Of a stretch of 22,105 nucleotides of DNA, positions 8,148-21,100 are shown piece after piece. Under the pieces are notes generated by a model, which saw only the letters and a program-made list of their open reading frames with translations, was not told where the DNA came from and made no database searches. The stretch comes from a virus (taxonomy: Duplodnaviria > Heunggongvirae > Uroviricota > Caudoviricetes): the IMG/VR virus record IMGVR_UViG_2671180609_000024. One strand, 5' to 3'. Numbering within the stretch: the first letter of the stretch is position 1; every line of letters starts with the position of its first letter. Made by a program: the position numbers and the translations under genes.

Positions 8148-8193
8148 ATTCGTAATGCGAAGGTCGTAGGTTCGACTCCTATTATCGGCACCA
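8148..8193 (+). repeat. Direct repeat of the tRNA-Thr 3' end (46 bp, exact): att junction between element 1 and the P4-like element
   Basis: ATTCGTAATGCGAAGGTCGTAGGTTCGACTCCTATTATCGGCACCA is identical to positions 1399-1444 of the full tRNA gene. Confidence 0.9.
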
Positions 8194-8355
8194 TCTCAAC
8201 TTCCTCAAACGTCCGTATTAGTCCATAAAATCTCTGATTTATAACATTTTTTATTCTTTTAAGTCCATAGTAGTCCGTAACCATCCAGTAGAATCCGGTA
8301 CTGAATGTGTATAGGATTGTGTATATGTTCCTGTTCGGTCTGGATTCCTATACAC

Positions 8356-9537
8356 ATGCCTTTAAACGATATGCAGATTCGCCGCGCTAAGCCTGAAGCT
8401 AAAGCCTATACATTTGGAGATGGGCTAGGGTTGTCATTACTTATAGAACCTAATGGAAGCAAGAGTTGGCGGTTCCGCTATCGCTATGCCGGCAAACCCA
8501 AAATGATCTCGCTTGGTGTTTACCCAACGATCACCCTTGCCGATGCTCGTTCCCGTCGTGATGAAGCTCGAAAACTTGTGGCAGAAGGAAAGAACCCTAG
8601 TGAGGTTCGAAAAGAGCAAAAGCTAGCTATGCAAACAGAGTCAGAGAACGCCTTCGAAAAGATAGCCAGAGAGTGGCATCAACTTAAATCTGCTAAATGG
8701 TCGGCGGGATATGCATCAGACATCATGGAAGCGTTTAAGAACGACATTTTTCCTTATGTCGGAACAAGGCCTGTGGGAGAGATTAAACCGCTAGAGCTGC
8801 TGAACGTTCTGCGTAAAATTGAGAAACGTGGTGCGTTGGAGAAAATGCGCAAAGTGCGGCAGCGTTGCTCCGAAGTGTTTCGCTACGCAATTGCAACGGG
8901 TAGGGCGGAGTACAATCCTGCGGCTGATCTCTCCAGCGCTCTCGAAGTACACCAATCCAATCATTTCCCATTCCTAAAAGCTGATGAGATACCTGATTTT
9001 CTACGTGCCTTAGAGGGTTACTCCGGGAGTAAGCTTGTCCAGATAGCCACGAAATTACTGATGATTACGGGTGTGAGAACCATCGAATTACGCGCGGCAT
9101 TATGGCAAGAATTTGATCTGGATAACGCTATTTGGGAAATTCCTGCTGAAAGGATGAAAATGCGTAGGCCACATCTTGTGCCCTTATCATCTCAAGCGGT
9201 AGATTTACTCAATGAACTCAAGATCATGACAGGGAACTATCGTTATGTTTTTCCAGGGCGGAACGATCCGAATAGGCCAATGAGCGAAGCGAGTATAAAT
9301 CAAGCCATTAAGCGTATTGGGTATGGAGGAAAAGTCACTGGACATGGTTTTCGTCATACCCTTTCTACAATCCTGCATGAGCAAGGTTTTGAGAGTGCTT
9401 GGATTGAAATCCAGTTGGCTCATGTAGATAAAAATTCTATTAGGGGGACTTATAACCATGCTCAATATTTTAGTGGAAGGAAGTCTATGATGGACTGGTA
9501 CAGTAATTTGATATTTGAAAGACTAAAAAGGAGTTAA
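8356..9537 (+). CDS. int: P4-type tyrosine integrase (N-terminal arm-binding domain + catalytic domain)
   Basis: N-terminus MPLNDMQIRRAKPEAKAYTFGDGLGLSLLIEPNGSKSWRFRYRY is the classic P4/CP4-type integrase start; C-terminal HGFRHT ... Y catalytic motifs. Immediately follows the tRNA-derived repeat and reads away from it. Confidence 0.92.
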   Translation: MPLNDMQIRRAKPEAKAYTFGDGLGLSLLIEPNGSKSWRFRYRYAGKPKMISLGVYPTITLADARSRRDEARKLVAEGKNPSEVRKEQKLAMQTESENAFEKIAREWHQLKSAKWSAGYASDIMEAFKNDIFPYVGTRPVGEIKPLELLNVLRKIEKRGALEKMRKVRQRCSEVFRYAIATGRAEYNPAADLSSALEVHQSNHFPFLKADEIPDFLRALEGYSGSKLVQIATKLLMITGVRTIELRAALWQEFDLDNAIWEIPAERMKMRRPHLVPLSSQAVDLLNELKIMTGNYRYVFPGRNDPNRPMSEASINQAIKRIGYGGKVTGHGFRHTLSTILHEQGFESAWIEIQLAHVDKNSIRGTYNHAQYFSGRKSMMDWYSNLIFERLKRS

Positions 9538-9540
9538 TTT

Positions 9541-9957
9541 GTGTCTCAACCACTTTCGGAAATATTGACATGGGATGATGAACAATGGGAGGTATTTGTC
9601 CATGATTGGCTTATTGTCTGTAAATCAGATGATTACCCGTGGAGCGAACGTTTGGGAGGAGCTGGAGATAAAGGTAGAGACGTTGTTGGATATAAATCGG
9701 ATCCTAACGTAGAAGGTTATTCTTGGGATAATTATCAATGCAAACTGTACAAAAAAAGTTTAGGGTTCTCTGATGTTGTAGTTGAGTTTGGAAAACTTAT
9801 CTATTTTACTCTGAATGGTGATTATCCCATCCCTCAGAAGTACTTTTTTGTGGCACCCTATGATTTATCTACTACATTTTCTAATTTATTGAAAAATAAA
9901 AACGAGCTTAAAAAAGCAGTCCTTGATTCATGGGATTCAGCAATTTCAAAAAAATAA
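9541..9957 (+). CDS. Cargo gene 1: small protein with a PD-(D/E)xK (Mrr-like) nuclease motif; possibly the N-terminal part of a longer protein (see findings)
   Basis: GTG start 7 nt after SD AAGGAG and 3 nt after the int stop. Motifs GGAGDKGRDVVGY and, about 20 aa later, YQCKLYKK (D ... QxK) look like a restriction-endonuclease-like core. Very AT-rich. Confidence 0.6.
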   Translation: MSQPLSEILTWDDEQWEVFVHDWLIVCKSDDYPWSERLGGAGDKGRDVVGYKSDPNVEGYSWDNYQCKLYKKSLGFSDVVVEFGKLIYFTLNGDYPIPQKYFFVAPYDLSTTFSNLLKNKNELKKAVLDSWDSAISKK

Positions 9958-10547
9958 CTAAAAAGATTGATATTCCATTAGATGATGAAATAAAAAAATA
10001 TATTGAGGATTTTGATTTTAGTATTTTTTACTCTCTACCCTTATCATTGATTTTAAATGATATTGCAAATACACACCTTTATTTTAAGTACTTTAACGAG
10101 CTGTATGTCGTGAGAATCCCTCCAAATGAAATTCCAACATACAATTCAAAAAAAGAGTCTGTATATGTTAATGCACTGCTTCAAGCCTATTCAGAGCATG
10201 GAAATAAAACTTATAGTTCTTTCTTAGAGCTTGATGATCCATACAGACGACACTTTAATAATAGTAGAAATGATTTTTATTTTGCATCTTCGCTTGAGGT
10301 TTTTGTCCGCGAAGTATTTAAAGATGATGTATTCAAAGCATTGAAATGTTACATTTCATCTTCAATTGAACCCGTCTTTTATGAAGACCATAATTATGCA
10401 TTTATTAGGTGTAATGCAGTCTTGAAGCAGGCTGTTCTGACACCAATTGCACATTCAGTACTATCAAAAATATGTGAAGCAAATGATAAAAAAGGAATAT
10501 GCCATCATTTGGTTAATGATGGTGAAGTAATTTGGACGGTGAGATAA
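9930..10547 (+). CDS. Cargo gene 2: hypothetical protein (205 aa as listed); may be the C-terminal part of gene 1 joined by a shift in an A7 run
   Basis: ORF overlaps gene 1 by 28 nt in another frame; both frames pass through the A7 homopolymer at 9948-9954. No domain recognised by eye. Confidence 0.5.
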   Translation: MGFSNFKKITKKIDIPLDDEIKKYIEDFDFSIFYSLPLSLILNDIANTHLYFKYFNELYVVRIPPNEIPTYNSKKESVYVNALLQAYSEHGNKTYSSFLELDDPYRRHFNNSRNDFYFASSLEVFVREVFKDDVFKALKCYISSSIEPVFYEDHNYAFIRCNAVLKQAVLTPIAHSVLSKICEANDKKGICHHLVNDGEVIWTVR

Positions 10548-11005
10548 TGGTTAGAATTTATAATTCAAGTTTAGAAGTGGCATGTCGAATGGCGAAAGTG
10601 CTCGTCGCTATTTATCCTTCTTCATTAAGCCTTGAACGGCTTATTTGTTTTGATTTTATTTTAGTAAATCTTAAGGATTTTTTACCTGAAGAGATTAGTC
10701 TTCATCCTCCAATACCCCGTAGAGATGCTCAGTTAGCCCTAAAACGAGAGATTGTTTTAGAATCATTGGCTTTGTTGCAAGGCTATGAACTAGCCTCAAA
10801 AATTTATACACATCGTGGTTTTGTATATAAAGCTTCTGAAAAAACATATGCATTTACAAATTCTCTACATAATGAATATGTTGCGCAGATGGAGCATAAT
10901 ATAAATTTGGTGGTTAAGTTATATAGTGATATTCCTGATGAGCAGTTGCAATCAATTATAAAAAATAAAATTGGCAAATATGATATGGAATTTAATTATG
11001 AATGA
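10547..11005 (+). CDS. Cargo gene 3: hypothetical protein (about 152 aa)
   Basis: ATG overlaps the gene-2 stop (TAATG at 10545-10549); its stop overlaps the next gene's start. Same AT-rich composition. Confidence 0.55.
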   Translation: MVRIYNSSLEVACRMAKVLVAIYPSSLSLERLICFDFILVNLKDFLPEEISLHPPIPRRDAQLALKREIVLESLALLQGYELASKIYTHRGFVYKASEKTYAFTNSLHNEYVAQMEHNINLVVKLYSDIPDEQLQSIIKNKIGKYDMEFNYE

Positions 11006-11630
11006 CAATTTTTTTACGTTCAGAAAAATAAAGGTAACCGGATTCAATAAATTAGATGCTATAATTGAATTTGGTTCTAAATTGACTATTTTATATGGTG
11101 GTTCTGACTCTGGAAAAACATACATATATTATTTGATTCGATATTTATTAGGGAGTGAAAAACTAAAAAATAAAGATATCGATCATGCTCAAGGTTATGA
11201 TTTAGCCTATCTGGAATTTAATTTTCAAGGTAGGGTAATGACAATTGAGAGGTCTCTTCAGGATAGCGCCCATTACAGATTATATGATTCGAGCATTGAA
11301 AATGTTAGTGAAGCTAATCTGTTGATGGTTTTTTCCAAAAGTGCTTCGTCTAAAAAGAGTTTTTCATCATACTTTTATGGTAGGTTGAATTTCAAAGAGG
11401 CTAAAGTAAGAACAAACTTAAGTAATACTCTTCATAAATTTAATCTTAATAATGTTTTTGAATTTTTTTGTATTGATGAATTAAGAGTGTTAACTGAGAA
11501 GTCGTTAATTCTTTCTGATATTCCTAGCGAGGAGACAAAAAGAAAGTCTGAATTTAAATTCCTTTTAACTCAGAGAGATGATACTAACTCCTTAGCAGAA
11601 AAACCAAATAAAAAAGCAAGATATTTTTAA
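10998..11630 (+). CDS. Cargo gene 4: N-terminal head of an SMC/Rad50/RecN-like ABC ATPase (Walker A)
   Basis: FRKIKVTGFNKLDAIIEFGSKLTILYGGSDSGKTYIYYLIRYLLG is the canonical SMC-like N-terminal strand-loop-Walker A arrangement (GxxxxGKT). The ORF ends at a TAA inside a T5/A7 tract and the next ORF continues in the same frame. Confidence 0.65.
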   Translation: MNDNFFTFRKIKVTGFNKLDAIIEFGSKLTILYGGSDSGKTYIYYLIRYLLGSEKLKNKDIDHAQGYDLAYLEFNFQGRVMTIERSLQDSAHYRLYDSSIENVSEANLLMVFSKSASSKKSFSSYFYGRLNFKEAKVRTNLSNTLHKFNLNNVFEFFCIDELRVLTEKSLILSDIPSEETKRKSEFKFLLTQRDDTNSLAEKPNKKARYF

Positions 11631-11660
11631 AAAAATCAAATTGCAAATATTTATGAGGAA

Positions 11661-12251
11661 TTGAAAGCGCAATTAATTTATCCTGAATATGATCAAGTCA
11701 TTGTTTCAAGAGAACTTGAGAAAGTAGAGCAAGATATTGAATCATCGAAAGATATATTGAAAGGTATTGTTGATGCACTTGATGATAAGAAGCAATTATT
11801 AAAAGAGTTAAGTGATGAATTATATTCAATCAGTGACAGGGAAAAATACTTATCATTACTCATTGAAAGATTTAGTCTTCTTAAAGACCAATACTTTATA
11901 GATCTACAAAGAATAGATGTTGTATCACAGGCGAATTTCTATTTAAATAATTTTGCAGATATTTATTGTGAGTTCTGTAATACACCGCAAAAAAAAGAAA
12001 ATGAAATATCATATGATGATTGTTTTTTGTCGTGTAATGCAGAAAAATTGAAAATCAAAAGCCAGCTGAAAGGATTAATTGAATCAATCGGATCTAATGT
12101 TCGCGAACATGAATTAATTATGTTAAGAAAAAATGATGTTAATGAAATTTATCAATCAGAAAAAAGTGATTTTAAGACGTTAGAAGATAAAAATATAAAA
12201 CAATACATTCATCTCTTGAATCACTTTATGAATATAAAGACAATCTTTTAA
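11661..12251 (+). CDS. Cargo gene 5: coiled-coil segment of the SMC/Rad50-like ATPase with a Cys4 cluster (CxxC-x14-CxxxC); probably not independently translated
   Basis: Heptad-rich sequence (EKVEQDIESSKDILKGIVDALDDKKQLLKELSDELYSI...), cysteines in YCEFCNTPQ...DDCFLSCN. Same frame as gene 4, separated by a single TAA; the listed start is a TTG with no convincing SD. Confidence 0.5.
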   Translation: MKAQLIYPEYDQVIVSRELEKVEQDIESSKDILKGIVDALDDKKQLLKELSDELYSISDREKYLSLLIERFSLLKDQYFIDLQRIDVVSQANFYLNNFADIYCEFCNTPQKKENEISYDDCFLSCNAEKLKIKSQLKGLIESIGSNVREHELIMLRKNDVNEIYQSEKSDFKTLEDKNIKQYIHLLNHFMNIKTIF

Positions 12252-12817
12252 TGGATCACACAAAACATAGCATTCTATCTTCATTACAAGATAAAGAAGA
12301 TGATGTTGACGAACTTAAATACTCCGCCGAGGACTTTGACTCCTTAACAGTAGCTGATTTGTATGATATAGAAATAGCGATGCAAGACTTTTTGAATGAT
12401 ATAAATTTTGAAAATTCTAAAGATAACAAAGTGCGATTTGACGAAGATACATATGACTTTAATATCAATGGGAAACGCCGAGGAATGTTTGGTAAAGGTA
12501 CCCGTGCAGTAATGCATGCTATATTTACCATTTGCTTTGCGGAATTTTTATCAAGAAAAGGGAATCCATTCATTGGATTTGTTGTGCTTGATAGTCCATT
12601 AGTGACGCACTTTGATAAAGATAGAGGGGGTTCTCTATCGGATGTTAATAGCGTCAGTCTCAGTGATTCATTTTATCACGCATTAATCAAAAGGGACTAT
12701 AATTTCCAGATTGTAATTCTTGAGAATAAAGGTCCGACGTTCCAAATAAAAATTAATGATGCAAATAAAATCCATAACTTAAATAAGAATGGAAGCTCTG
12801 GTTTTTATCCTGTTTAA
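12251..12817 (+). CDS. Cargo gene 6: C-terminal head of the SMC/Rad50-like ABC ATPase (signature-like region, Walker B/D-loop, H-loop)
   Basis: FGKGTRAVMHAIFTICFAEFL followed by PFIGFVVLDSPLVTHFD (hydrophobic strand + D, Walker B-like) and a downstream His (FYHAL). ATG overlaps the gene-5 stop (TAATG). Confidence 0.6.
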   Translation: MDHTKHSILSSLQDKEDDVDELKYSAEDFDSLTVADLYDIEIAMQDFLNDINFENSKDNKVRFDEDTYDFNINGKRRGMFGKGTRAVMHAIFTICFAEFLSRKGNPFIGFVVLDSPLVTHFDKDRGGSLSDVNSVSLSDSFYHALIKRDYNFQIVILENKGPTFQIKINDANKIHNLNKNGSSGFYPV

Positions 12818-13226: not shown

Positions 13227-13499
13227 TCAGACAGGAATTTGCTGACGGCTTGACAGCTTTGACGCGGAGCCATAGCGATTGAGAGTTTGCTGTTGTTTTT
13301 CCGGCATTTGTGCTTTCTCTGATTCCTGTTCATTGCGCCGGGGCTTCATGATTATCGTATCCACACTTTCCAGTGCGGTAAATGTGTAGGAACATTCAAG
13401 ATTCTGGCACTGATACCATGAGCGTTTAACCGATGGTGCTTCATAGGCGGAGGTTCTGGCGTGTGCCGTCGTACCGCATTCGGGACATTTAAGTGCCAT
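13227..13499 (-). CDS. Ogr/Delta-family zinc-finger late-gene activator (single-domain, 90 aa)
   Basis: MALKCPECGTTAHARTSAYEAPSVKRSWYQCQNLECSYTFTALESVDTIIMKP aligns by eye with P2 Ogr (CPxC..AHARTS ... QCQN.xCS.TF..ESV). Confidence 0.85.
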   Translation of the reverse strand: MALKCPECGTTAHARTSAYEAPSVKRSWYQCQNLECSYTFTALESVDTIIMKPRRNEQESEKAQMPEKQQQTLNRYGSASKLSSRQQIPV

Positions 13500-13504
13500 T
13501 AATA

Positions 13505-14056
13505 TTACTCCTGCATGCCGTTAATGTAATCCAGACGTTGCTGAAAGCGCAGTTGTTGTGCAGGGGTGTAAGAGCTCTGGCAATCACGAACCATCATGGG
13601 GTCAGGCATCACACCGGATTCATCCAGAATCATACGATAATCCCCGGCAATTTCAGGCGGTGTTATTGCCAGCTGGCGAACCAGAGCATTGCGTAATATA
13701 CGGGACGCAACGTCAACCCCTCCGCGCCCCTTCAGGAACGGAGCCAGTGCAGATGTCAGGGCTGCTCCATTCGCCTGCATAAAATTGCTGAGAGCGTCTT
13801 CTGTGCAGGCCTCCATCAGTTGATGCTGCGAGTAAATGCATTCGCGCGCAGCACAGTTAATTTGCCATTTCAGCACATCCAGATGTTCCCGCTGTAATTC
13901 GAGCTGTCGAGCATAATCTGCTGGTTTTTCCATGGCAGTGAGGAGTGATTCTATCTGTTGTTCAACGGCTTTTCGGCTCTCACTATGTCCAGCCCACAGA
14001 ATACGGGCATTTCTAAAACTGATAAGCGCTTGGTCTGGAGTGACTCGGGCCATCAT
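13505..14056 (-). CDS. psu: Psu-like polarity suppression / capsid decoration protein
   Basis: Segment LDVLKWQINCAARECIYSQHQ ... LSNFMQANGAALTSALAPFLKG ... TPAQQ resembles P4 Psu as I recall it (KWQ.N.AA ... FMQ.HG.AL..ALAP.L.G ... TPAQ). Size 183 aa against 190 aa. Confidence 0.7.
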   Translation of the reverse strand: MMARVTPDQALISFRNARILWAGHSESRKAVEQQIESLLTAMEKPADYARQLELQREHLDVLKWQINCAARECIYSQHQLMEACTEDALSNFMQANGAALTSALAPFLKGRGGVDVASRILRNALVRQLAITPPEIAGDYRMILDESGVMPDPMMVRDCQSSYTPAQQLRFQQRLDYINGMQE

Positions 14057-14805
14057 ACTGCTTTCTCCTTCTCAGCACGTTCCTGACGAACCTTCATTTT
14101 ATGCATAGCTGCTGGAGAGAGTTTATTACTGAAATCCAGACGGGCCGCATAATCCGGGGCAACTCCCGCCAGTTTAAACACGGGGTCCTGTTCGGGCATC
14201 GCATCGTTAGTCAGAGCCGGTCTGGTGATATGTTTATGAATAAAATCTTTCAGCAGTGTGTCCGGGTCATTAACTGAATGCACCACACCGACAACTGCGC
14301 TGGCTTCCCTGCCCATTGTTGATTTGAGCAGGCTTAGTGTCTGGATTAGTGCTTTTCCATGCGACTGCATAAAATCTTCCCAGATTTGTTTTGCGCGAAT
14401 ACCCACAAGGGTGTCGTGCGCGTGGATATACTTTCCGGCTAATTCCGCAGCCTCCTGCGGCAAAAGTGCATTTTCGCTTTCCTGAGCCGCCAGCAGCTCA
14501 TCAAAATCCTCAAGCGTTTCTCGTCCCAGCGCAATTTCCGTGCGCAGTTTTTTCATTTCCTTTGAGACTACGCCCTGACTTTCACGAAATAGCGTGCGCC
14601 ACTCCTCATTCAGGGCGTTCGTCGTGGCTTCCATTTCAGCGCGGCGCTGGCGGATTGTCGCAATATTATCCGCTGCCGCTTTTTGCTGACGACGTGCTTC
14701 AAGCCATGCAGATTTGGTGGCATTCACTTTCTCAAGCGCCTGTTGCGTCGAAACAGGGATAGAAATTTCAACGATCGGGTTATTGTTCTGTTCTGGGATT
14801 GTCAT
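14053..14805 (-). CDS. sid: Probable Sid-like external scaffold (capsid size determination) protein
   Basis: 250-aa alpha-helical, Ala/Glu/Gln-rich protein, first gene of the minus-strand operon and overlapping psu by 4 nt; size and position match P4 Sid (244 aa). Called by context, not by a recognised motif. Confidence 0.5.
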   Translation of the reverse strand: MTIPEQNNNPIVEISIPVSTQQALEKVNATKSAWLEARRQQKAAADNIATIRQRRAEMEATTNALNEEWRTLFRESQGVVSKEMKKLRTEIALGRETLEDFDELLAAQESENALLPQEAAELAGKYIHAHDTLVGIRAKQIWEDFMQSHGKALIQTLSLLKSTMGREASAVVGVVHSVNDPDTLLKDFIHKHITRPALTNDAMPEQDPVFKLAGVAPDYAARLDFSNKLSPAAMHKMKVRQERAEKEKAV

Positions 14806-14971: not shown

Positions 14972-15187
14972 ACTATTCACTACTATTCACTTAGGTAAAA
15001 AAAATAGGTAATACAGAAGGTTATAAGGTGAAGGGTTGGCATGGCAGTATTCATCGACTGTTCATAACTGTTCACATGGGAATAAAATTATTTATGGTAT
15101 TTTTTCATAATGGGTGGTTTTTTTATTCCTCGTAGCTATTTGTTTTTTGCTCCTCACCACTATTCACCCTTATTCAGGAGTATTCAA
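14972..15187. repeat. Cluster of about 8 direct iteron-like repeats, T(A/G)TTCA(C/T) (P4 type-I-iteron-like TGTTCACC variants), in the divergent intergenic region
   Basis: ACTATTCACT ACTATTCACT (tandem, 14972-14991), AGTATTCAT (15047), TGTTCAT (15059), TGTTCAC (15069), TATTCACC (15161), TATTCAG (15171), TATTCAA (15181), all in the same orientation. Confidence 0.6.
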
Positions 15188-16771: not shown

Positions 16772-17094
16772 TGATATGCTGTGAATCTCTTCTGGCACTT
16801 CGTGCCGCTCTGTATCGCCGTGCCGTTGCCTGTGCCTGGCTGGCTCTAAGCAATCATCAGGAACGTTATTCCGGCCTGACGCTCGCTGAACTTGAAGATG
16901 CCATAGCCCGCGAGCTGGAAGGGTTCTATCTGCGCCAGCATGGGCAGCAAAGAGGGCTGGAAATTGCCTGCGCGTTGCTTTCGGATCTGATGGAGTCGGG
17001 GCCGCTTAAAGCCTGTCCGGTTCTCTCACTGCTCGGAATGACGGTCATGGATGAACTTTGTTCCCGTCACCTCAACAAACCAGCGCTGCACTAA
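16771..17094 (+). CDS. Hypothetical protein of the P4-like early operon (107 aa)
   Basis: SD GGAGGTGG upstream; start overlaps the previous stop; ends 13 nt before the alpha start. Confidence 0.55.
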
Positions 17095-17107
17095 GGAGGG
17101 CCGCACA

Positions 17108-19441
17108 ATGTCAGGAATGAAAGTTAGCCAGGCTGAGAAAGCAGCTCGGGGTCACTGGTCAAGAATTTTACCTGCGCTGGGCGTAAATGTACTGAAAAAT
17201 CGGCACCAGCCCTGCCCGGTCTGTGCCGGGAAAGACCGCTTTCGATTTGATGACCAGGAAGGGCGGGGAACGTGGTTCTGTAACCAGTGCGGGGCAGGTG
17301 ATGGCCTGGCGCTTGTAAGTAAAGTACTGGATGTAGGCATTAGTGAAGCGGCAGACAGAATAAACGGCATTATCGGAAACCTGCTGCCAGTATCTCAGGG
17401 AATGCTTGAATCTGGTTCTCCTGAAAAAGAGGACGGGAGAAAAGCTGCAGCAGTGCTGGCTGCCCGTTTGTTTGATAAGTCCCGCCAGACCACTGGCAAT
17501 GCCTATCTGACGAGTAAAGGGTTTCCTGCACTGCCTTGCCGGGAATTAACCGCTATGCATAAAGTCGGTGGTGTGGCATTTCGCGCGGGAGATCTTGTCG
17601 TTCCATTGTATGCAGATGGAGAGCTGGTAAATCTGCAGTTAATCAACGCTAATGGGGGCAAATGCTTCCTTAAAGGCGGTCAGGTTAAGAATGCCTTTTA
17701 CCTGGTTGAAGGTACTGCCAAAGCAGCCAAACGGCTCTGGATAGCGGAAGGATATGCCACCGCACTTACTATCAACTATCTGACTGGCGATGCTGTCATG
17801 GTGGCCTTTTCGTCCGTCAATTTCCTTTCCCTGGCGAGCATTGCCTGCAGTGAGTACCCAACGCACCAGATAATTATTGCTGCTGACCGCGATCTCAACG
17901 GTGCGGGGCAAACAAGGGGCGCAGCTGTTACCGGGGCCTGCAATTGCACAATGGCGCTCCCGCCTGTGTTTGGTGACTGGAACGATGCATTCACGCAAAA
18001 CGGCGAAGAAGCCACCCGGCATGCAATTCATGAAGTAATAAAACCAGCTGTTGCCAGCCCCTTCGACACAATGAGCGAAGCTGAATTTACCGCGCTGAGC
18101 GTCAGCGAAAAAGCGCAGAGGGTAGTGGATCACTATAAAAATTCACTGGCAGTAGACCCGAACGGGCAGCTCCTTTCACGCTATGAGGCGGGGGCCTGGA
18201 AAGTTATCTATTACGCCGATTTTGCCCGTGATGTCGCTGCGCTGTTTCAGCGCCTCGACGCACCTTTTTCATCCGCGAAAATTGCGTCTCTCGTGGAAAC
18301 CCTCAAACTGATCGTTCCGCAACAGCAGAATCCGGCGCGGCAACTTATCGGATTTCGCAACGGTGTGCTCGATACCCGGACAGGATTGTTCAGCCCGCAC
18401 GATAAGAAGCACTGGTTACGTACGCTGTGCGAGGTGGATTACACGCAGCCCGTTGACGGTGAGTCACTGGAAACCCATGCCCCGGCATTCTGGCGCTGGC
18501 TGGATCGTGCCGCAGGTTTTAATCCTGAAAAACGGGACATTATTCTGGCTGCATTGTTTATGGTGCTGGCTAACCGTTATGACTGGCAGCTGTTTCTGGA
18601 GGTCACTGGCCCTGGCGGAAGTGGAAAGAGTATTCTTGCTGAAATAGCAACCATGCTGGCGGGTGAAGATAACGCGACCTCGGCAACCATTGAAATGCTT
18701 GAGTCGCCAAGAGAACGAGCTGCGTTAATAGGTTTTTCACTGATTCGACTTCCCGACCAGGAAAAGTGGAGCGGTGACGGGGCCGGACTAAAAGCCATCA
18801 CTGGCGGCGATGCGGTATCCGTTGATCCCAAATATCAGAACGCCTATTCAACCCACATCCCGGCGGTCATCCTGGCTGTGAACAATAATCCGATGCGCTT
18901 CACTGATCGTAGTGGTGGAGTTTCACGCCGAAGGGTGATCCTGCATTTCCCCGACCAGATAGCCCCGGAGGAACGCGATACCCAGCTCAAAGAGAAAATT
19001 GCCAGTGAGCTAGCGGTGATTGTTCGCCAGCTTATGCAGCGTTTCAGCGACCCAATGAGTGCCAGGACATTGCTTCAGTCACAGCAGAACTCCGATGAAG
19101 CGCTCACCATCAAACGTGATGCTGATTCAGCTTTTGATTTTTGCGGCTACCTTGAGGTCCTACCTGACACCACGGGCATGTTTATGGGGAACGCTAATAT
19201 TGTTCCACGTCAGCCTCGAACTTACCTCTACCATGCCTATCTGGTCTACATGGAGGCTAACGGCTATAAAAATACGCTCAGTCTGACCATGTTTGGCAAG
19301 GGGCTACCGTTAATGCTCAAGGAATATGGGCTGCAGTATGAGAAACGACGGACCAATCAAGGAATGCAGACTAATCTGGCCCTAAGAGAGGAAAGCAATG
19401 CTGACTGGTTGCCAAAATGCGATGAGTTTGCAGCGAAATAA
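17108..19441 (+). CDS. P4 alpha-like bifunctional primase-helicase (777 aa)
   Basis: SD AAGGAGGG before the ATG at 17108. N-terminal zinc-binding primase motif CPVCAGKDRFRFDD...GTWFCNQCGAGDG; central P-loop EVTGPGGSGKSIL (D5-type helicase Walker A). Length equals that of P4 alpha (777 aa). The listed ORF starts 19 codons upstream. Confidence 0.9.
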   Translation: MSGMKVSQAEKAARGHWSRILPALGVNVLKNRHQPCPVCAGKDRFRFDDQEGRGTWFCNQCGAGDGLALVSKVLDVGISEAADRINGIIGNLLPVSQGMLESGSPEKEDGRKAAAVLAARLFDKSRQTTGNAYLTSKGFPALPCRELTAMHKVGGVAFRAGDLVVPLYADGELVNLQLINANGGKCFLKGGQVKNAFYLVEGTAKAAKRLWIAEGYATALTINYLTGDAVMVAFSSVNFLSLASIACSEYPTHQIIIAADRDLNGAGQTRGAAVTGACNCTMALPPVFGDWNDAFTQNGEEATRHAIHEVIKPAVASPFDTMSEAEFTALSVSEKAQRVVDHYKNSLAVDPNGQLLSRYEAGAWKVIYYADFARDVAALFQRLDAPFSSAKIASLVETLKLIVPQQQNPARQLIGFRNGVLDTRTGLFSPHDKKHWLRTLCEVDYTQPVDGESLETHAPAFWRWLDRAAGFNPEKRDIILAALFMVLANRYDWQLFLEVTGPGGSGKSILAEIATMLAGEDNATSATIEMLESPRERAALIGFSLIRLPDQEKWSGDGAGLKAITGGDAVSVDPKYQNAYSTHIPAVILAVNNNPMRFTDRSGGVSRRRVILHFPDQIAPEERDTQLKEKIASELAVIVRQLMQRFSDPMSARTLLQSQQNSDEALTIKRDADSAFDFCGYLEVLPDTTGMFMGNANIVPRQPRTYLYHAYLVYMEANGYKNTLSLTMFGKGLPLMLKEYGLQYEKRRTNQGMQTNLALREESNADWLPKCDEFAAK

Positions 19442-19448
19442 CTGACCT

Positions 19449-19469
19449 AAGACCGGCTGTGCCGGTCTT
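19449..19469. terminator. Perfect palindrome / hairpin (AAGACCGG ... CCGGTCTT) between the convergent alpha and cargo genes; no U-tract
   Basis: AAGACCGGCTGTGCCGGTCTT forms an 8-9 bp stem, 8 nt after the alpha stop. No flanking T-run on either strand, so terminator function is uncertain; it could be a protein-binding palindrome. Confidence 0.35.
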
Positions 19470-19573
19470 AAATCCGCTACAGGAAATTATCTCAAAATAT
19501 ATATCGATAAAATTTAAAAGTTATATGCTAAGGCGTCAGCGGAAAATGCATCTAATTCATTGTTAGATGATGT

Positions 19574-20530
19574 TTATTTTTGAATTGATTTAAACATCCC
19601 ATCGAGTTGTAATTTATTTATGTCGGTTTTCTTTATGGCTTTAATTAAGTTTTCAATAACTTCCAAAGAAAAAATTACATCTTTCTTTTCAATTCTAACC
19701 CCCCCGTGGTGGCTGCAAGCATTAAGGATGTCCTTTGTAATTTCAACATCATTTTTCATTAATGGTTCATAGTCCAGAGCCTCAATAACAGAAACTAAAC
19801 TACCTAGCATTTGCTCTTGGTATTGAACGTTGTTTAAATGCATTATACGAATATTAACAAGCATGAGAATATATTCTAAATATCTCCTGGCAGTATTTCC
19901 TTTCTCTTGTAAAGAATCACGATCATATTCCTCAATACTCATGACTTCATTATGTAAAGAGGCTATTTTGTGCTCTGCTAATGAAATATTTATCGCATCC
20001 ATGAGGTTTCGTGAGAAGCCTGTAGATGTAACATGACCATTTGCGGGCCTTGTTAAAATACATGTAGTATAGCAATTTATATTTGGGGTCTGGATTGTCT
20101 CATTTACTCTTTTAACCGTTCTATAAACGTCTACCATATAAGAACCTGAGTTTTCAAATGAACATGAAGAGCATTTTGTATTATATATTCTATTTAGAGA
20201 TAACTGATTGTGATAGTATCCCTTTAAGAAAGCATATATAGTGTCATTAAACTCGACAAACACAACGGACTCAATATATATATGGAATTTATCATTGGGG
20301 TGCCACTCTAATTCAAGTCTTCTTGTAGAGTCATCAAAGGAAAAGTTTGAAATAAAATCCCAGTTACCTAAATCTATAAAATCAACGATATTTCTACCTG
20401 CACCATGGATATTTTTATTTATTAAAGTTGTGATTGAGTTTTTTATAATGTCCCAATCATGAATTTCATGATCGAATTTATTATTGATGGTTTCTTTTAT
20501 TTGATTGGAAAAGTTTGAATAACTAGTCAC
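19574..20530 (-). CDS. Orphan AT-rich cargo gene, hypothetical protein (318 aa), between alpha and the distal att remnant
   Basis: Long ORF with a GTG start preceded by a GAGG SD; strongly AT-rich, Asn/Ile/Lys-rich composition unlike the flanking P4-like genes. No domain recognised by eye. Confidence 0.6.
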   Translation of the reverse strand: MTSYSNFSNQIKETINNKFDHEIHDWDIIKNSITTLINKNIHGAGRNIVDFIDLGNWDFISNFSFDDSTRRLELEWHPNDKFHIYIESVVFVEFNDTIYAFLKGYYHNQLSLNRIYNTKCSSCSFENSGSYMVDVYRTVKRVNETIQTPNINCYTTCILTRPANGHVTSTGFSRNLMDAINISLAEHKIASLHNEVMSIEEYDRDSLQEKGNTARRYLEYILMLVNIRIMHLNNVQYQEQMLGSLVSVIEALDYEPLMKNDVEITKDILNACSHHGGVRIEKKDVIFSLEVIENLIKAIKKTDINKLQLDGMFKSIQK

Positions 20531-20829
20531 TTGTTAGCCTCAAAATTAATAATGAGTATTAAAATTTAATTGATATTGTCTATAAAATGTAGCGATGCAA
20601 TTTTATTGCAACGAAATGATTTTTACAACATACCATTATCGCTAAACAAAATCGCACCCATCAAATCAACTTACGTTACAATCACTACAAAGCGATTGCA
20701 TTTAAATTCAAAACAGTTTTCTGTTGGGCGCATTTTTTGTTGTACTGGACTAAAGAGAAAAAATGGGGTAAGGAACAAATACCTTCCGTGCTCAAAAATT
20801 AGGTTTTTATGCACTTATTAATCAGTCAA

Positions 20830-20921
20830 GGTGAACAGTAAAGTGTTCACTTCTTATCAATCGTTAATTTCATATCTTTTTGAATATTAATGAAAAAAAA
20901 CACAATGAGTAGTATGAACAG
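20830..20921. repeat. Inverted pair of P4 type-I-iteron-like octamers (GGTGAACA gtaaag TGTTCACT) plus a further inverted copy (ATGAACAG)
   Basis: GGTGAACAGTAAAGTGTTCACT at 20830-20851 (GGTGAACA is the reverse complement of TGTTCACC); ATGAACAG at 20914-20921. Confidence 0.5.
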
Positions 20922-21060
20922 TTTTCCCCCAAAAAAAGTTTTTTCTGCCTTGAGAATGCGCGGAAAGCGAACGCCTTCACCAATGTGTATAGGGGTGTGT
21001 GTAGTTTAAATCTTCTATTTTAATTTATGTATTAAAATCATTGTGTTGGTGGCGATTATT

Positions 21061-21100
21061 GGTTCCTATTATCGCACCATTTAAATCAAGTAGTTACCCC
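21061..21100 (+). repeat. Degenerate third copy of the tRNA-Thr 3' end plus flank (distal att remnant of the array)
   Basis: GGTTCCTATTATCGCACCATTTAAATCAAGTAGTTAC against the tRNA 3' end plus its flank GGTTCGACTCCTATTATCGGCACCATTTAAATCAATAAGTTAC at 1420-1462 (a 5-nt and a 1-nt deletion, two substitutions). Confidence 0.6.

Follow-up and report, generated by a model that had tools for sequence, protein, structure and literature searches.

The DNA analysed here is a stretch of 22,105 nucleotides held as the IMG/VR virus record IMGVR_UViG_2671180609_000024 (hereafter the window, meaning this whole stretch). It is the thrW region of Escherichia coli O157:H7 and, over the region tested, has the same sequence as EDL933 and numerous further O157:H7 chromosomes. 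Our study concerns one gene of a P4-like satellite in this region, located at 19574 to 20530 on the minus strand, between the satellite primase gene alpha and the distal attachment site (att). It encodes a protein of 318 amino acids from a GTG start and is annotated in RefSeq, at the same coordinates, as WP_000205213.1, "hypothetical protein". The target is a real gene under purifying selection, and the C-terminal half of its product is predicted to adopt a HEPN fold with a rearranged, strongly conserved polar centre. By analogy with known single-protein systems, there is about an even chance that the protein is a phage-triggered ribonuclease (RNase) that arrests translation. The gene is the payload of a single-gene cassette.

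The cassette occupies the minor cargo hotspot of a P4-like satellite that the O157:H7/O55:H7 lineage carries at thrW. In the mechanism that we propose, the polar set R215, E219 (with K223), N270, S273, and H274 would constitute a HEPN ribonuclease centre whose arginine comes from helix 1. The protein would stay inactive until it senses a phage-derived cue via the N-terminal domain or oligomerisation, and once activated it would cut RNA (tRNA or mRNA) with no metal cofactor. Translation would then stop and the infection would abort, to the benefit of the satellite and its host. We favour this phage-triggered RNase because a lone, mobile, AT-rich gene with a sensor-like N-terminal domain and a C-terminal HEPN domain resembles the single-protein HEPN abortive-infection RNases. 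RNA cleavage by the protein, its trigger, and protection against phages are each putative.

Predicted fold and conserved residues

The AlphaFold2 model, computed with the homologue alignment, reached a predicted local distance difference test score (pLDDT) of 89.7 and a predicted template modelling score (pTM) of 0.85. It divides the protein into two domains. The N-terminal alpha/beta domain (residues 1-167; 20030 to 20530, minus strand) comprises two helices and a sheet of ~10 strands. A conserved acidic/aromatic patch on this domain, VDFIDxGxWD (D50, D53, W57, and D58), is accompanied by W76. D50 is kept in 59/61 and D58 in 60/61 sequences of an alignment of 61 diverse relatives down to about 15% identity, on which all column counts given here are based. 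This domain may act as a sensor, regulatory, or ligand-binding domain.

The C-terminal helical domain (residues ~169-318; 19577 to 20026, minus strand) has the predicted four-helix up-down arrangement of HEPN domains. R215, E219, H274, and G277 are invariant (61/61), N270 and S273 are present in 57/61 and 56/61 relatives, respectively, and G243, L245, and Y237 are at least 90% conserved. The first two invariant residues belong to the helix-1 motif EKGNTARRYLEYILM (residues 209-223; 19862 to 19906, minus strand), where R215 lies one turn (four residues) before E219. Since position 223 is a lysine in 51/61 relatives, E219-x3-K223 corresponds to the Ex3[KR] motif found in many HEPN families (PMC3710099). 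The remaining polar residues fall in the motif LNACSHHGG (residues 269-277; 19700 to 19726, minus strand), which runs from the last part of helix 3 into the next loop. There H274, directly after the helix of residues 260-272, takes the usual place of the histidine of the HEPN Rx4-6H motif, and N270 lies four residues before it. The residue following the motif arginine is typically N, D, or H in HEPN domains (PMC3710099), and N270 provides this polar residue in the target. The conservation of this polar centre suggests catalysis and not mere binding, and R215, invariant and situated on helix 1, might take the place of the missing motif arginine.

The initial annotation of this gene recognised no domain in the protein. 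For sequence libraries that statement stands, whereas structure prediction gives the HEPN domain. Pfam returned sub-threshold noise only, without any HEPN model even at E≤1, and NCBIfam and PHROGs gave nothing meaningful. A sequence-profile search of the PDB with the 61-sequence alignment yielded only a designed coiled coil (E 2.1). No viral structure in BFVD matched significantly; an "RNaseLS-like protein" came up at E 4.9e-3 with a template modelling score (TM) of 0.17. With the PADLOC result described below, the family is unrecognised by the four protein-family libraries and the PDB sequences searched. We found no paper naming WP_000205213.

Conservation, selection, and distribution

The gene had been described initially as an orphan, a description that our searches overturn. 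A set of 5.8 billion proteins contained 36 homologues in 90% clusters, mostly of 313-321 amino acids and 44-80% identity, which belong to Enterobacterales (Citrobacter, Providencia, Pantoea, Pectobacterium, Proteus, Serratia, Enterobacter, Salmonella, and Klebsiella) and to Aeromonas. When 1.84 billion representatives were searched with a profile, the family grew to 152 clusters at E≤1e-3 (100 at E≤1e-10). The ratio of nonsynonymous to synonymous substitution rates (dN/dS, Nei-Gojobori) was 0.06 against an allele of 80% identity and 0.12 against one of 76%, with synonymous sites near saturation. Irrespective of the host, the guanine-cytosine (GC) content was 29-35% in every homologue examined. 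The family is sparsely distributed.

Within E. coli, 307 of 5426 complete genomes carry the gene, and 306 of the 308 records are at least 99% identical to it; at this identity the gene is intact in 306 of the 307 genomes. All 40 records sampled across the ranking were O157:H7, O55:H7, or of a serotype not stated. The gene is fixed in O157:H7. A tblastn search found no copy in 50,697 GenBank phage genomes (P4 included), and plasmids held one fragmentary copy. A scan of GTDB representative genomes gave 1 locus and IMG/VR gave 6, too few for a statistical defence-island test.

Some distant members of the family are longer than the target. Six of them (P0042-P0046 and P0063; 469-507 amino acids) carry an N-terminal extension of ~190 amino acids with weak, sub-threshold similarity to DUF3775. 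Four others (P0069, P0096, P0115, and P0143; 571-612 amino acids) have a C-terminal extension of ~250 amino acids with the conserved stretch HLFT..EI...ADD..DN.LV.DE.G. The long fused relatives matched nothing in the profile libraries, and neither type of extension matched a Pfam or PADLOC family.

A single-gene cassette between alpha and att

In P4, t-alpha comes after the stop codon of alpha, and then crr, which consists of two 120-bp repeats containing type-1 iterons; the arm repeats and core of attP complete the interval, in which no gene lies (P4 annotation). The corresponding order in the window is a terminator, the target open reading frame (ORF), ~300 bp of private DNA, iteron-like repeats, an arm-type repeat, and attR. 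Since similarity to other E. coli P4-like backbones restarts only at ~20828, the sequence comparison indicates a single-gene cassette of ~1.35 kb (about 19475 to 20827) inserted between t-alpha and crr. The content of this interval varies among related elements. TL012 (L031, 2746-3819) has an unrelated 357-amino-acid gene, without Pfam or PADLOC match, between the primase and the crr-like region. EcPF15 (L032, 4286-4945) has no gene before the crr-like region and a 219-amino-acid HSDR_N_2 protein after it. Both genes are further candidate cargo of the hotspot. In a second P4-like lineage (L013-L015), an allele of 76% amino acid identity follows a diverged alpha in the same convergent position. 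These three features, namely the gene-free interval in P4, the variable genes in relatives, and the allele at the same position, bear out the earlier suggestion of a second accessory payload slot. The initial annotation had also considered homology to a structural or regulatory P4 gene, and none was found; most P4-like elements lack the gene, which is limited to the 307 of 5426 E. coli genomes given above.

The slot itself is already known. The interval between primase and att is reported as a minor hotspot that accounts for 7% of P4 defence systems, and defence systems predominate in P4 hotspots (PMC13586616). As an AT-rich accessory gene located between conserved core features at a variable position, the target resembles the hotspot cargo of P4 satellites (Rousset et al. 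2022; PMC13586616). The main hotspot of those satellites is int-psu, which in the element of the window is filled by an apparently decayed ABC-three-component system.

The gene is convergent with alpha (17051 to 19441, plus strand) and has its own Shine-Dalgarno sequence, GAGG (20538 to 20541, minus strand), 7 nt 5′ of the GTG and kept as TTTTGAGG in the L013 allele. Asparagine, isoleucine, and lysine together make up 27.0% of the protein, compared with 10.9-18.0% in the alpha, int, psu, sid, and LysR proteins. The GC content is 0.31 over 19501-21000, compared with 0.52-0.55 in alpha. On all these points the first description of the gene was accurate. The AT-rich region upstream of the gene (20531 to 20827, minus strand) is specific to the cassette, is poorly conserved between alleles, and contains sigma-70-like hexamers at 20628->20600 and 20582->20555; promoter-like and terminator-like counts around the gene were not above those of shuffled sequence. 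That this region is palindrome-rich, as had been stated, did not survive comparison with shuffles: the inverted repeats upstream of the gene are short ones only, with no excess over chance, and a palindrome-rich upstream region was rejected as a regulatory feature.

Genomic contexts of relatives

A survey of homologue contexts, which the initial annotation had proposed, placed the family in mobile-element and near-defence positions. In a Citrobacter integrative and conjugative element (ICE), a homologue of 80% identity has an orphan N6/N4 DNA methylase on one side and ArdC on the other; a type I restriction-modification (RM) system with an AAA_15/21 ATPase is close by. An orphan DNA methylase and ArdC are typical anti-restriction functions. 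In an E. coli thrW island (L010, 11446-16327), a homologue of 44% identity comes directly after the integrase and adjoins the PADLOC candidate PDC-M60, whose A/B/C locus consists there of a Y4jQ-family protein of 1091 amino acids and two receiver-domain proteins. An Enterobacter homologue lies beside a P2-like remnant (ogr, gpW, and gpV) and GmrSD, a Pantoea homologue lies at the end of a lambdoid prophage, and a metagenomic relative lies beside an MmeI-type RM system. In Proteus, Serratia, Enterobacter, and Aeromonas, homologues stand by themselves as islets between core genes, flanked by long stretches of private DNA. No conserved partner gene was found across the about 12 contexts examined. 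These contexts fit a lone mobile accessory gene that moves among the cargo positions of mobile elements.

Comparison with known HEPN systems

The closest known systems are found in the HEPN superfamily, especially the Parep1/8-type variants, in which the motif histidine is kept, the motif arginine is lost, and other basic residues are conserved (Anantharaman et al. 2013, PMC3710099). The label "inactive" is reserved in that classification for domains without conserved polar residues (PMC3710099). The target is distinguished by another residue, such as leucine or alanine, at the place of the motif arginine, an invariant R215 before the motif glutamate, and a fusion to an N-terminal alpha/beta domain unmatched in libraries.

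Among single-protein defence systems, ApeA (Gao_Ape) is an abortive-infection HEPN tRNase that is activated by deoxydinucleotides, has a ligand pocket, and cleaves the tRNA anticodon (bioRxiv 10.64898/2026.01.26.701840). It shares with the target its single-gene organisation, a non-catalytic N-terminal region or regions followed by a C-terminal HEPN effector, and a location in E. coli accessory DNA. It serves as the model for a HEPN RNase that is turned on by a ligand-sensing domain. However, ApeA has about 580 amino acids, is mainly helical, combines an N-terminal and a Mid domain with a split HEPN domain, and uses the canonical catalytic arginine R502, whereas the target has 318 amino acids, a beta-rich N-terminal domain, no motif arginine, and no PADLOC or Pfam ApeA match. 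DARNA/PD-T7-3, a single-protein HEPN tRNase, is switched on by single-stranded DNA that the phage single-stranded DNA-binding protein presents (bioRxiv 10.64898/2026.02.22.705581). It resembles the target as a single-gene E. coli defence with a HEPN and a sensor domain and an abortive-infection logic. Its order is reversed, with an N-terminal HEPN domain carrying R117x4H122 and a helical Pds5-like C-terminal domain in 456 amino acids.

The RnlA/LsoA toxins likewise place a HEPN RNase after non-catalytic N-terminal domains and have an anti-phage role. R255 and E258 are repeatedly named together with H323 in PMC8266594, which thus also considers residues beyond Rx4H. The Rx4H motif itself is canonical in RnlA, and RnlA is paired with the dedicated antitoxin RnlB, whereas the target has neither a partner gene nor sequence similarity to it. 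The only link between RnlA and the target is the non-significant BFVD match mentioned above. Taken against these systems, the slot and the class of single-gene HEPN effectors are known, and the family, the motif arrangement, and the N-terminal domain are what distinguishes the target.

Weighing the proposed function

The initial annotation had put forward a single-gene abortive-infection or anti-phage protein. The HEPN fold, the conserved catalytic-type residues, the lack of a partner gene, and the mobile and near-defence contexts speak for this idea, and the missing canonical HEPN arginine speaks against it. We infer a candidate anti-phage gene of the single-protein abortive-infection type.

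Several observations weigh against a phage-triggered RNase in this role. No arginine occurs at position 269, where the motif arginine is expected, in any of the 61 relatives; the residues found there are L, A, S, T, C, and V. Because the canonical arginine is absent in every member, catalysis by the HEPN domain is not assured. A search with PADLOC-DB v2 gave 0 families at E≤1, and hidden Markov models of catalogued defence families (ApeA, DARNA/PD-T7-3, PD-T4-2, and others) are among those that did not match. Two large validation studies were checked: judged by description, the target matches none of the systems that the main text of PMC13586616 names or tests, and its motif strings were not found in the part of the DefensePredictor supplements that was searched. 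The target differs from both precedents, ApeA and DARNA/PD-T7-3, in architecture, size, and motif. Furthermore, about a third of the contexts are lone chromosomal islets without defence neighbours, and the anti-restriction neighbours in the Citrobacter ICE are equally compatible with counter-defence. One IMG/VR contig (L030) carries a frameshifted copy of the gene adjoining an alpha of 99.7% identity.

The missing arginine gives some weight, though clearly a minority share, to a HEPN domain that is non-catalytic; the protein would then be no toxin and would serve as a nucleic-acid- or ligand-binding regulator or adaptor acting on satellite, helper phage, or host transcripts. However, across relatives of 14-30% identity the four residues R215, E219, H274, and G277 never vary and N270 and S273 seldom do, a pattern expected of a catalytic centre. 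The presence of the gene in many mobile elements that are unrelated, and in chromosomal islets, makes a satellite-specific regulatory role unlikely. A counter-defence or establishment gene, i.e., an inhibitor or RNase disarming host immunity or competitors, has a smaller chance of being correct. The position between methylase and ArdC in the Citrobacter ICE would suit such a gene, and every well-defined context is a mobile element. In contrast, the GenBank phage genomes contained no homologue and BFVD no significant match, several copies are islets fixed in the chromosome with no recognisable element around them, and defence systems predominate in P4 hotspots, as noted.

Lower still in probability stands an addiction (toxin-antitoxin) toxin that stabilises the element and is paired with an unrecognised antitoxin, for example a small RNA or peptide encoded in the 300 bp upstream of the gene. 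HEPN toxins occur frequently in toxin-antitoxin systems, such as HepT/MNT, RnlA/RnlB, and AbiF with its RNA antitoxin (PMC8266594), and long private flanks travel with the gene. Nevertheless, the search for a partner or RNA antitoxin was negative: the upstream DNA holds no tandem repeats, no Rfam match, and no small ORF common to the window and the 76% allele, its conservation between alleles is poor, and no adjacent partner is conserved across the contexts. That the ORF is spurious or, as the initial annotation had envisaged should conserved homologues be lacking, in decay, within AT-rich junk DNA beside att, is scarcely credible. The GC content of 31%, the GTG start, the lack of a sequence-library match, and the frameshifted copy in L030 would agree with it, but homologues are plentiful and conserved over their full length to 44% identity and beyond. 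The low dN/dS with saturated synonymous sites, the spread of homologues, and the confident predicted fold refute this explanation, and the intact gene in 307 complete E. coli genomes also argues against it.

Returning to the phage-triggered RNase, we can also formulate a broader proposal, which is possible but rather doubtful. The target would be the founding member of a family of single-protein immune effectors in which a PH/YojF-like sensor controls a HEPN RNase whose catalytic arginine has moved from Rx4H to helix 1 (R-x3-E-x3-K plus N-x2-S-H). This family would travel as a lone AT-rich gene across P4-like, P2-like, lambdoid, ICE, and integrase-island slots, and would have become fixed in O157:H7/O55:H7. 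If confirmed, it would represent a compact defence family of 318 amino acids missed by PADLOC, Pfam, and NCBIfam, an example, open to experiment, of how a HEPN active site can be rebuilt when the motif arginine is missing, and a concrete gene for the little-studied primase-att hotspot of P4-like satellites. Besides, being near-universal in E. coli O157:H7, the gene could bear on phage susceptibility, e.g., in biocontrol or typing. Should the protein be inactive or non-defensive, the cryptic satellite would simply hold a further hypothetical accessory gene.

Layout of the thrW locus

The window begins with proA (ending at 1254) and the tRNA-Thr gene thrW (1369-1444). Behind it lies a first island (1459-~8150), a cryptic lambdoid/Mu-like phage remnant. 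In EDL933, RefSeq names cII, frameshifted replication genes, tail-fibre and assembly genes, the pinE invertase, a LEM-3-like GIY-YIG protein, an AraC regulator, and an IS fragment in this remnant. The P4-like satellite begins after a second copy of the tRNA-Thr 3′ end (~8148-8194).

The satellite opens with int (8305-9537), followed by an AT-rich cargo block in the int-psu hotspot (9541-12817), which RefSeq assigns to an ABC-three-component system. The ATPase of this system is seemingly split across three successive ORFs (10971-11630, 11661-12251, and 12251-12817). In PV15-279, the first gene of the system is flagged as frameshifted and IS1203 replaces the int side; this cargo is therefore probably decayed. 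The ogr/delta, psu, and sid-like genes (13227-14805) come next, and alpA-like, icd-like, and DUF5375 genes lie between the sid-like genes and alpha. RefSeq starts alpha at 17108 and names its product "primase-helicase zinc-binding domain-containing protein"; it is 72% identical to P4 alpha in both nucleotide and amino acid sequence.

Between alpha and the target gene, a strong, GC-rich stem-loop with a 14-bp stem (19444 to 19474; terminator-like match, inverted repeat I1) is positioned as t-alpha is in P4. The minus-strand RNA folds here, with z = -4.3 over a 150-nt stretch, and the stem-loop could serve as the terminator of both convergent transcripts. On the far side of the cassette, crr-like iterons of the ACTGTTCAC type (ACT[GA]TTCAC) occupy 20830 to 20922, where the repeats lie at 20830-20850 and at 20915; just one copy (20830-20837) agrees exactly with the P4 type-1 repeat TGTTCACC. 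Iteron-like repeats of the same ACT[GA]TTCAC form also occur in an ori-like region between sid and alpA (14972-15168), a sharing that parallels the ori/crr arrangement of P4.

The arm-type repeat AATGTGTATAGG... (20982 to 21006, plus strand) has a second copy at the int start (8304-8329, blastn), and in P4 attP arm repeats flank the core likewise (P4 annotation). The attR core (21064 to 21097, plus strand; ptwF-like), read as TCCTATTATCG-CACCAT..., matches the tRNA-Thr 3′ end of thrW and its second copy, in agreement with the distal att remnant first described. It marks the right boundary of the island, and the majority of E. coli genomes align to the window only from ~21057 on. An extra att-core-like copy, ATCGCACCCATCAAATCAA, is found at 20651-20669, 420 bp inside the attR copy ATCGCACCATTTAAATCAA (21071-21089). 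Both lack the same G relative to the thrW sequence ATCGGCACC (1436-1454), and their flanks of ~50 nt are loosely alike. This inner copy falls in the private upstream region of the cassette and may be a vestige of secondary or tandem integration.
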